The notes under the pieces were generated by a model that was given only the letters and a program-made list of their open reading frames with translations, searched no databases and was not told the origin of the DNA. A stretch of 64,000 nucleotides of DNA from Escherichia coli (lineage in GTDB: Bacteria > Pseudomonadota > Gammaproteobacteria > Enterobacterales > Enterobacteriaceae), in assembly GCF_036507355.1 (NCBI RefSeq), contig NZ_AP027877.1; one strand, 5' to 3'. Position 1 is the stretch's first letter. Each line of letters starts with the position of its first letter. Position numbers and translations under genes: made by a program. Shown here one piece after another: positions 12,008 to 12,274 of the stretch.

Positions 12008-12274
12008 TTCGCGGCGGCACCATTATATTCTGAATATGTAAGATCGAAGGCTGTTCCGTTCACTTGATGTTCCTCACTACTATGGAACGCTCAAGCCGGT
12101 GAACGTGCCAGGGTGGCTCAATCGCCACCACCCTGGCAACCCGGGCTCCCGGCGGTAAATCGCCGCTGGCGCGGTTCCCTCATCTTATTCCTTTCGGCTA
12201 TCGGGTACGGGCGCGAGGTAACATATATGGACGCTCCCGGAATGCAATGCTTTCTTCAGTTATGTAATAAAACG

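Follow-up and report, generated by a model that had tools for sequence, protein, structure and literature searches.

The window analysed here, a stretch of 64,000 nucleotides of Escherichia coli DNA, carries the convergent genes asmA (10096-11949, plus strand) and yegH (15438-13789, minus strand). The spacer between them holds a REP palindrome just past asmA (11974-12006; 33.1 bits against the Rfam family naRNA4, whose threshold is 59.5), an insertion sequence (IS) at 12225-13610 and, lying between these two, a hairpin at 12106-12138 that a sequence-only reading had singled out. An inverted-repeat search and folding energies define this hairpin as two arms of 11 nt each (12106-12116, TGCCAGGGTGG, and 12128-12138, CCACCCTGGCA), 100% complementary and set 11 nt apart by the loop CTCAATCGCCA (ctcaatcgcca), with predicted folding energies of -22.0 kcal/mol on the plus strand (z = -2.9) and -24.4 kcal/mol on the minus strand (z = -2.7). 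Its position had been given correctly, at about 160 bp downstream of asmA (the gap from the asmA end at 11949 is ~157 bp) and about 90 bp outside the IS (87-89 bp from the IS start at 12225), but the 9-bp perfect stem described at 12108-12136 is the inner part of a perfect 11-bp stem, and the loop, written out as 12 nt, contained one c too many. Perfect stem-loops of at least 10 bp with separate arms number three in the 64-kb window, this hairpin included, and another of them, at 13634-13655, falls in the same repeat element. Since one such perfect hairpin per 64 kb does not by itself exceed chance by much, the reality of this one rests on comparative data, and on those data the hairpin is real.

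The sequence-only reading had presented the hairpin as a lone feature, which it is not: it is the end module of a family of ~210-bp repeats that the IS targets. We put at about 0.9 the probability that a structured intergenic repeat of this length has the hairpin as its conserved end stem-loop, and the hairpin forms the last stem-loop of the element on the minus strand. A profile of the family (nhmmer) detects a single copy in the window, in two pieces at 12097-12225 and 13614-13696, with window positions 12225-12097 corresponding to profile positions 83-211 (E = 1e-35) and 13696-13614 to profile positions 3-85 (E = 4.5e-24). The asmA-side part (12099-12224) is the 3' half on the minus strand and contains the hairpin, one arm of a closing stem and half of a hairpin referred to below as GGA-hairpin B; the yegH-side part (13616-13696) is the 5' half, with the other closing-stem arm, GGA-hairpin A and the remaining half of hairpin B. 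The two parts are contiguous in the IS-free allele of strain GPEC606 (L001). Directly abutting the stem is a conserved motif, GTGAACGT (12099-12106, plus strand; ACGUUCAC on the minus strand), which marks the end of the element: similarity between copies at different loci stops at this motif or no more than about 10 nt past it, and the other end lies near CAGCCGGAC (13696). The sequence ACGTTCAC is retained in nearly all aligned copies, the aqpZ/yohP subfamily having GCGCTCC in its place, and the hairpin position is present in every full-length copy.

Searching the family beyond this locus showed it to be multi-copy. A 221-bp query taken from the IS-free allele matched a median of three and up to ten places per E. 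coli genome, with copies at aqpZ-lysO, yohP-dusC, proX-ygaY, sstT-alx and mmuM-tauA. K-12 MG1655 has two full copies (915,028-915,238 and 2,229,165-2,229,375) and one truncated copy in which the hairpin is retained (2,139,501-2,139,612), and an annotation of the element was absent from every RefSeq record examined, MG1655 included. Copies at different E. coli loci are 83-86% alike and occupy fixed loci across species, which argues against recent mobility. Exact matches to a 22-mer of the core were found in E. albertii, E. whittamii, two other Escherichia species, Citrobacter sp. R56 and one MAG, and a scan of metagenomes with a degenerate structural pattern returned more than 120 loci, among which 56 gave full-length matches to a profile built from E. 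coli and Citrobacter copies. The same kind of scan on viral contigs gave 10 structural-pattern matches, none of which was confirmed by the family profile.

Several arrangements of copies were seen along the way. Diverged copies stand head to head in Citrobacter sp. R56 and on four metagenome contigs, their closing-stem ends turned inwards with a conserved 77-85-bp spacer between them (L021 973-1470, L072 5004-5505, L108 1015-1517, L135 447-954 and L044 4333-4822). Tandem partial copies, comprising approximately the first 70 profile positions, directly precede a full copy in L096 (6896-7288; three, at 162-bp spacing) and in L154 (6780-7047; two). In E. whittamii (L026 8483-8780), an asmA-type copy carries a 78-bp insertion in its closing-stem region; being G+C-rich and partly palindromic, this insert may be another small repeat.

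The asmA-yegH spacer itself (window 11950-13788; L002, L004, L012, L164 and L165; hit H12) is highly variable among strains. The allele of JA0257 has the REP only, the K-12-type allele has a deletion that takes half of the element, and that of CB209 has lost the core and kept the hairpin; in other alleles a RelE/ParE toxin-antitoxin insertion is present, sometimes together with the element and the IS and sometimes not, and one strain carries an IS621 insertion. At two further sites K-12 has other sequence where other strains have the element, namely a G+C-rich palindromic block in the alx-sstT spacer (L168 ~1600-1700) and a REP/BIME in the proX-ygaY spacer (L033 ~4150-4300). Such sites seem to exchange one intergenic repeat for another.

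The hairpin is native E. coli chromosomal sequence and lies outside the IS. Megablast of window positions 11900-13850 against 5426 complete E. coli genomes recovered several alleles of the spacer, and alignment of the window with IS-free GPEC606, K-12 and CB209, the comparison that the sequence-only reading had proposed, finds the hairpin at the same position in all three (with one loop base different from the window in K-12 and CB209), yet not as part of any REP or BIME. A 103-bp segment containing it (12040-12142) is present in 4446 of the 5426 genomes, with a median of one match in each, which bears out one of the earlier suggestions, that of a native structural element. A second suggestion, that the hairpin is an unrecognised part of the IS, with the true boundary set beyond it to the left, draws on nearness to the IS (87-89 bp) alone, and we give it practically no credence: IS-free alleles retain the hairpin together with all sequence up to the insertion point at ACAT^CCCT, which is fixed by the uninterrupted GGTAACAT^CCCTGTAAAACG of IS-free GPEC606, and the IS copies found at yohP-dusC and at a yohP/lysO hybrid junction in strain SMS-3-5 end identically (ATATGGACGCTCC...CATCTCATTAT) within flanks that carry different hairpin variants. 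Because these ends are identical at other loci where the flanks come from other repeat copies, the IS extends from 12225 to 13610 and excludes the hairpin, which neither travels with the IS nor is absent from IS-free sites. That the hairpin could be a variant REP or BIME, as an extragenic palindrome ~100 bp from a true REP might be, is highly improbable, in keeping with the sequence-only reading. The true REP at 11974-12006 is a separate palindrome and alone matches the REP-derived naRNA4, below threshold; the relatives of the hairpin are the end modules of the 210-bp element and not REPs; and REPs number in the hundreds per genome, while most genomes contain the 103-bp segment only once. The third suggestion, a terminator-like hairpin, did not hold up either. 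A G+C-rich stem between convergent genes would be well placed as an intrinsic (Rho-independent) terminator for asmA on the plus strand or yegH on the minus strand, but we consider this very unlikely: the bases 3' of the stem are ACCCGGGCTCC on the plus strand (12139-12149) and CGTTCACCGGC on the minus strand (12105-12095), with no run of T (or U in RNA) on either, the loop is 11 nt long, a terminator scan gave zero terminator-like sites in the three intact, IS-free copies, and the same hairpin recurs among copies that have other gene arrangements and orientations. The G+C-rich stem is thus present without the short loop and the immediate U-tract of an intrinsic terminator.

Evidence that the hairpin is maintained as a structure comes from covariation, which was counted over the 10 pairs predicted by RNAalifold in a MAFFT alignment of 39 distinct copies. 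A standard pair was observed in 97.7% of cells, compared with 81.5% in 500 shuffles and 34-59% when the partners were slid by 1-3 columns. The covariation score was 0.478, compared with 0.160 for the shuffled alignments (0 of 500 reached the observed value, a control that overstates significance because the copies are related) and at most 0.17 for the slid ones. Compensatory change was found in six of the 10 pairs, and both sides had changed in 66 cells. The copies carry many variants of the stem, among them GCCAGGGTGG/CCACCCTGGC, GCAGGGGGCGG/CCGCCCCCTGC, GCAAGGGAGG/CCTCCCTTGC, GTTAAGGGTG/CACCCTTAAC and GTGAAGGGGG/CCCCCTTCAC, while the loop (GGCGAUUGAG or GGCGGCGAG, minus strand) and the 3' tail ACGUUCAC are conserved as sequence. 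The hairpin structure is nevertheless convincing, given the slid control and the many independent variants of the stem. Taken as a pattern of sequence change, in which stem changes compensate and the loop and GTGAACGT stay constant, the alignment shows a hairpin that selection has kept as a structure. We also considered whether the hairpin loop (GGCGAUU) might pair with AAUCGCC, the 5' arm of the closing stem, an idea dropped because inspection of the alignments by eye showed no covariation.

The core of the element is predicted to fold as well. RNAalifold gave the same architecture for both alignments used, namely a long closing stem, two hairpins with GGA loops inside it and the end hairpin after it, and compensatory change was found in 23 of 62 and 26 of 53 predicted pairs, respectively. 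Intact, the element has a folding energy of -111.2 kcal/mol on the minus strand (z = -5.6) and -98.5 kcal/mol on the plus strand (z = -4.1). The closing stem, P1, joins a left arm at 12149-12165 to a right arm at 13678-13694 across the IS; its arms are 17 nt long and 94% complementary, its pairs covary, and it is reproduced in the minimum-free-energy fold. GGA-hairpin A (13634-13655, minus strand) reads CAGCCCAC-AUGGAU-GUGGGCUG, with a loop of the form AYGGAY, and its stem covaries at columns 52-67 (GC in 22 copies, CG in 16) and 53-66 (GC in 26, CG in 13). GGA-hairpin B is split in the window, where one half lies at 12209-12224 (minus strand) and the other at 13616-13632, with the IS within its loop; in GPEC606 it is intact, as seen in the Rfam alignment. 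Across copies, GGA is invariant in the loops of both core hairpins. The consensus structure on the minus strand contains 44 G.U as against 9 A.C cells when one doubtful helix is excluded, although many of these 44 come from two pairs and reflect shared ancestry. This excess is a hint of RNA-level selection on the minus strand, and since the end hairpin is balanced (4 G.U vs 4 A.C), the hint comes from the core only.

This core resembles a known motif, TwoAYGGAY, which is made up of a pair of AYGGAY loops and a closing stem, P1, that is often very long (Weinberg et al. 2010, PMC2864571) and can be multi-copy within a genome, several copies from Psychromonas ingrahamii being included in the authors' alignment (PMC2864571). 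On the minus strand, three E. coli copies of the element align full-length to the Rfam model (RF01731) at 31.5, 30.6 and 28.2 bits, and one metagenome copy at 27.3 bits, all below the curated gathering score of 43 bits. At threshold, Rfam had no match on the window, on intact E. coli copies or on 12 further copy-bearing loci. The element has the long P1 of the motif, and the AUGGAU loop of hairpin A fits AYGGAY, whereas the AGGGAU loop of hairpin B has G in place of Y; in other copies AGGGAU, AGGGAC or AUGGAU may be found in either hairpin. The end hairpin lies outside the model, which covers GPEC606 (L001) positions 557-700, the hairpin being at 506-538.

The SELEX consensus for CsrA is RUACARGGAUGU, to which, on the minus strand, hairpin B (UUACAGGGAUGU) conforms at 11 of 12 positions and hairpin A (CCACAUGGAUGU) at nine of 12. 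The TwoAYGGAY loops have likewise been proposed as CsrA-binding sites by Gardner and Eldai (PMC4333381). These likenesses suggest that the two GGA-loop hairpins may be CsrA-type protein-binding sites. In an integrated-transcriptomics gene table for E. coli CsrA (supplement of PMC5694010), dusC and ybjE are entered as 'No' in all four undecoded flag columns, and yegH, aqpZ and yohP were not found in that table, which is weak negative evidence with regard to CsrA binding.

The IS that interrupts the element is 1386 bp long (12225-13610, minus strand), belongs to the RNA-guided IS110 family and has an IS1111-type layout. Its transposase gene (13523-12498, minus strand; 341 aa) encodes a protein that matches NCBIfam NF033542, 'IS110 family RNA-guided transposase', at 355.7 bits, as well as Pfam PF01548 and PF02371. 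Subterminal inverted repeats lie at 12227-12237 and 13592-13602, and a non-coding region of 273 bp lies 3' of the transposase gene; subterminal inverted repeats, a downstream non-coding region and the size of the transposase are traits of the IS1111 type (Siddiquee et al., PMC11187229). The IS is present in 179 of the 5426 E. coli genomes, at one to four places each. In every case examined it had inserted at ACAT^CCCT on the plus strand, that is, AGGG^AUGU on the minus strand, in the loop of GGA-hairpin B, and at three loci it occupies the same position in the element in the same orientation. Within its non-coding region, TGTTACCTC (12379-12387) is the reverse complement of target positions -10 to -1, and TAAAACG (12268-12274) matches target positions +5 to +12. 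Guide-like matches to both target flanks are as expected for a seekRNA, and the two sequences would constitute a natural seekRNA-target pair. The end hairpin, 88 bp from the insertion point, lies outside the guide-matching flanks of ~12 bp.

Two further observations concern copies of this IS. Between its right end and the CCCT of the target, the window has an extra CCCTT (13611-13615) that was found elsewhere only in strain G4/9; the seven other copies of the IS that were compared lack it, and a small duplication or slip at the junction may be its origin. In E. coli SMS-3-5 (L013, NC_010498.1 908805-912594) the IS lies between yohP and lysO, genes that in other strains flank two different copies of the repeat, an arrangement that points to a rearranged chromosome, with recombination having taken place either between two copies of the IS or between two of the repeat.

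With the hairpin placed at the end of a native repeat, the principal alternative to a role in RNA concerns the repeat as a whole, which might be a DNA-level element, mobile now or formerly and akin to MITEs or REPs, in which the hairpin and GTGAACGT would form a subterminal recognition structure for a single-stranded-DNA transposase or recombinase, on the model of REPs with RAYT or of IS200/IS605 element ends. The copies are multiple, intergenic, found in both orientations and patchy between strains and loci. Their limit at, or within about 10 nt of, GTGAACGT and their weakly inverted-repeat-like ends, GCCGG(C)TG(T)AA, are what such an element would have, a covarying stem with a fixed loop and flank resembles a site recognised by structure plus sequence, and the balance of G.U and A.C in the hairpin also counts in its favour. 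The orientation of the copies points the same way: by a crude ORF call, the upstream ORF was co-directional with the element in 29 and opposed in 25 of the 54 copies for which an upstream ORF could be called, which amounts to no orientation bias and is at least as compatible with a DNA-level repeat as with a dedicated RNA. Neither an empty site nor a target-site duplication was found at proX-ygaY, asmA-yegH or alx-sstT, however, where larger segments are replaced instead; no transposase gene accompanies the element, the sole one nearby being that of the interrupting IS; and the G.U excess in the core favours one strand. Together with the fixed loci noted above, these points leave mobility at the DNA level an unlikely explanation, though one well short of negligible.

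The explanation we favour as a whole, a native end stem-loop of a repeat together with a role as folded RNA, appears probable. Considered separately, the functional part is tentative: a folded RNA module with a REP-like hairpin as its 3' cap is the functional reading we prefer, at well short of even odds. The element would act as a folded single-stranded nucleic acid, most probably minus-strand RNA, made by read-through transcription from neighbouring genes, which in the window would be on the yegH strand. A search for sigma-70-like promoters and terminators in three E. coli copies and one paired metagenome copy found none in or beside the element beyond the level of shuffles; the matches to the promoter consensus, one within the yegH coding sequence (GPEC606) and one of nine in 12 positions within the L072 copy, did not exceed shuffles. 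At asmA-yegH, proX and yohP-dusC, a minus-strand RNA of the element would start 50-95 nt past the co-directional stop codon and end with the hairpin; the copy at aqpZ-lysO has the opposite arrangement. On such an RNA, the core would display the two GGA-loop hairpins and the end hairpin would be the 3'-terminal stem-loop, with the likeliest job of capping the RNA and protecting its 3' end from 3'-to-5' exonucleases in the manner of REP stem-loops; a protein may also recognise the conserved loop and tail. A bolder version, which we regard as improbable, would see in the ~210-nt element a kind of small structured RNA or 3'-UTR module that has not been described as a family and is intact twice in K-12, in which each pair of high-affinity GGA hairpins serves CsrA or another protein reading GGA loops, the hairpin is the 3' cap, and the guide of the IS1111-type IS is tuned to the second GGA loop so that insertions disable the modules.

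For annotation of the window, the hairpin gives no ground to shift the IS boundary or to label a terminator or a REP. More broadly, a structured repeat family supported by covariation stands unannotated in E. coli, including K-12, and is missed by Rfam at threshold; the family is uncatalogued, though of a familiar kind. To judge from the two GGA-loop hairpins, dispersed copies may be bound by CsrA or a similar protein, and as the chromosomal target of an IS1111-type IS the element family would offer a clean natural guide-and-target pair.

Compared with TwoAYGGAY, the element has the same core of a long closing stem and two GGA loops (AUGGAU and AGGGAU on the minus strand) and is likewise multi-copy, but it differs in scoring 27-31.5 bits against the required 43, in the AGGGAU of its second loop, in being an enterobacterial family, and in having the end hairpin and its ACGUUCAC tail beyond the Rfam model. 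Like the ERIC/IRU, REP/BIME and RSA repeats, it is short, non-coding, imperfectly palindromic, multi-copy and exclusively intergenic, occurs in either orientation, is patchy among strains and serves as a landing site for a specific IS; unlike REPs, to which it has no sequence likeness, it is present in far fewer copies. The 'RSA' repeat listed for E. coli K-12 is 152 bp long, and the core of the element from closing stem to closing stem is ~155 bp; the element may or may not be this old repeat, the likeness being one of size, and a literature search on the repeat names RSA, Box C and IRU and on exact sequence strings of the element returned nothing usable. Should the two be the same, the value of the present work would lie mainly in the structural description and the link to the IS.

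As a putative 3' cap, the end hairpin shares with the REPs that stabilise the 3' ends of mRNAs a stable G+C-rich stem-loop that has no U-tract and lies downstream of genes; it differs from them in that the 54 element copies have no orientation bias and the aqpZ-lysO copy is reversed. Repeats are known as targets of IS1111/IS110-family IS, ISPpu9 and ISPa11 both inserting in REPs (PMC12288879, PMC11187229). The IS in the window is like these two in its DEDD transposase, its subterminal inverted repeats, its downstream non-coding region with short matches to both target flanks, and its use of one exact site in a palindromic repeat, and unlike them in that its target is the 210-bp element described here rather than a REP.
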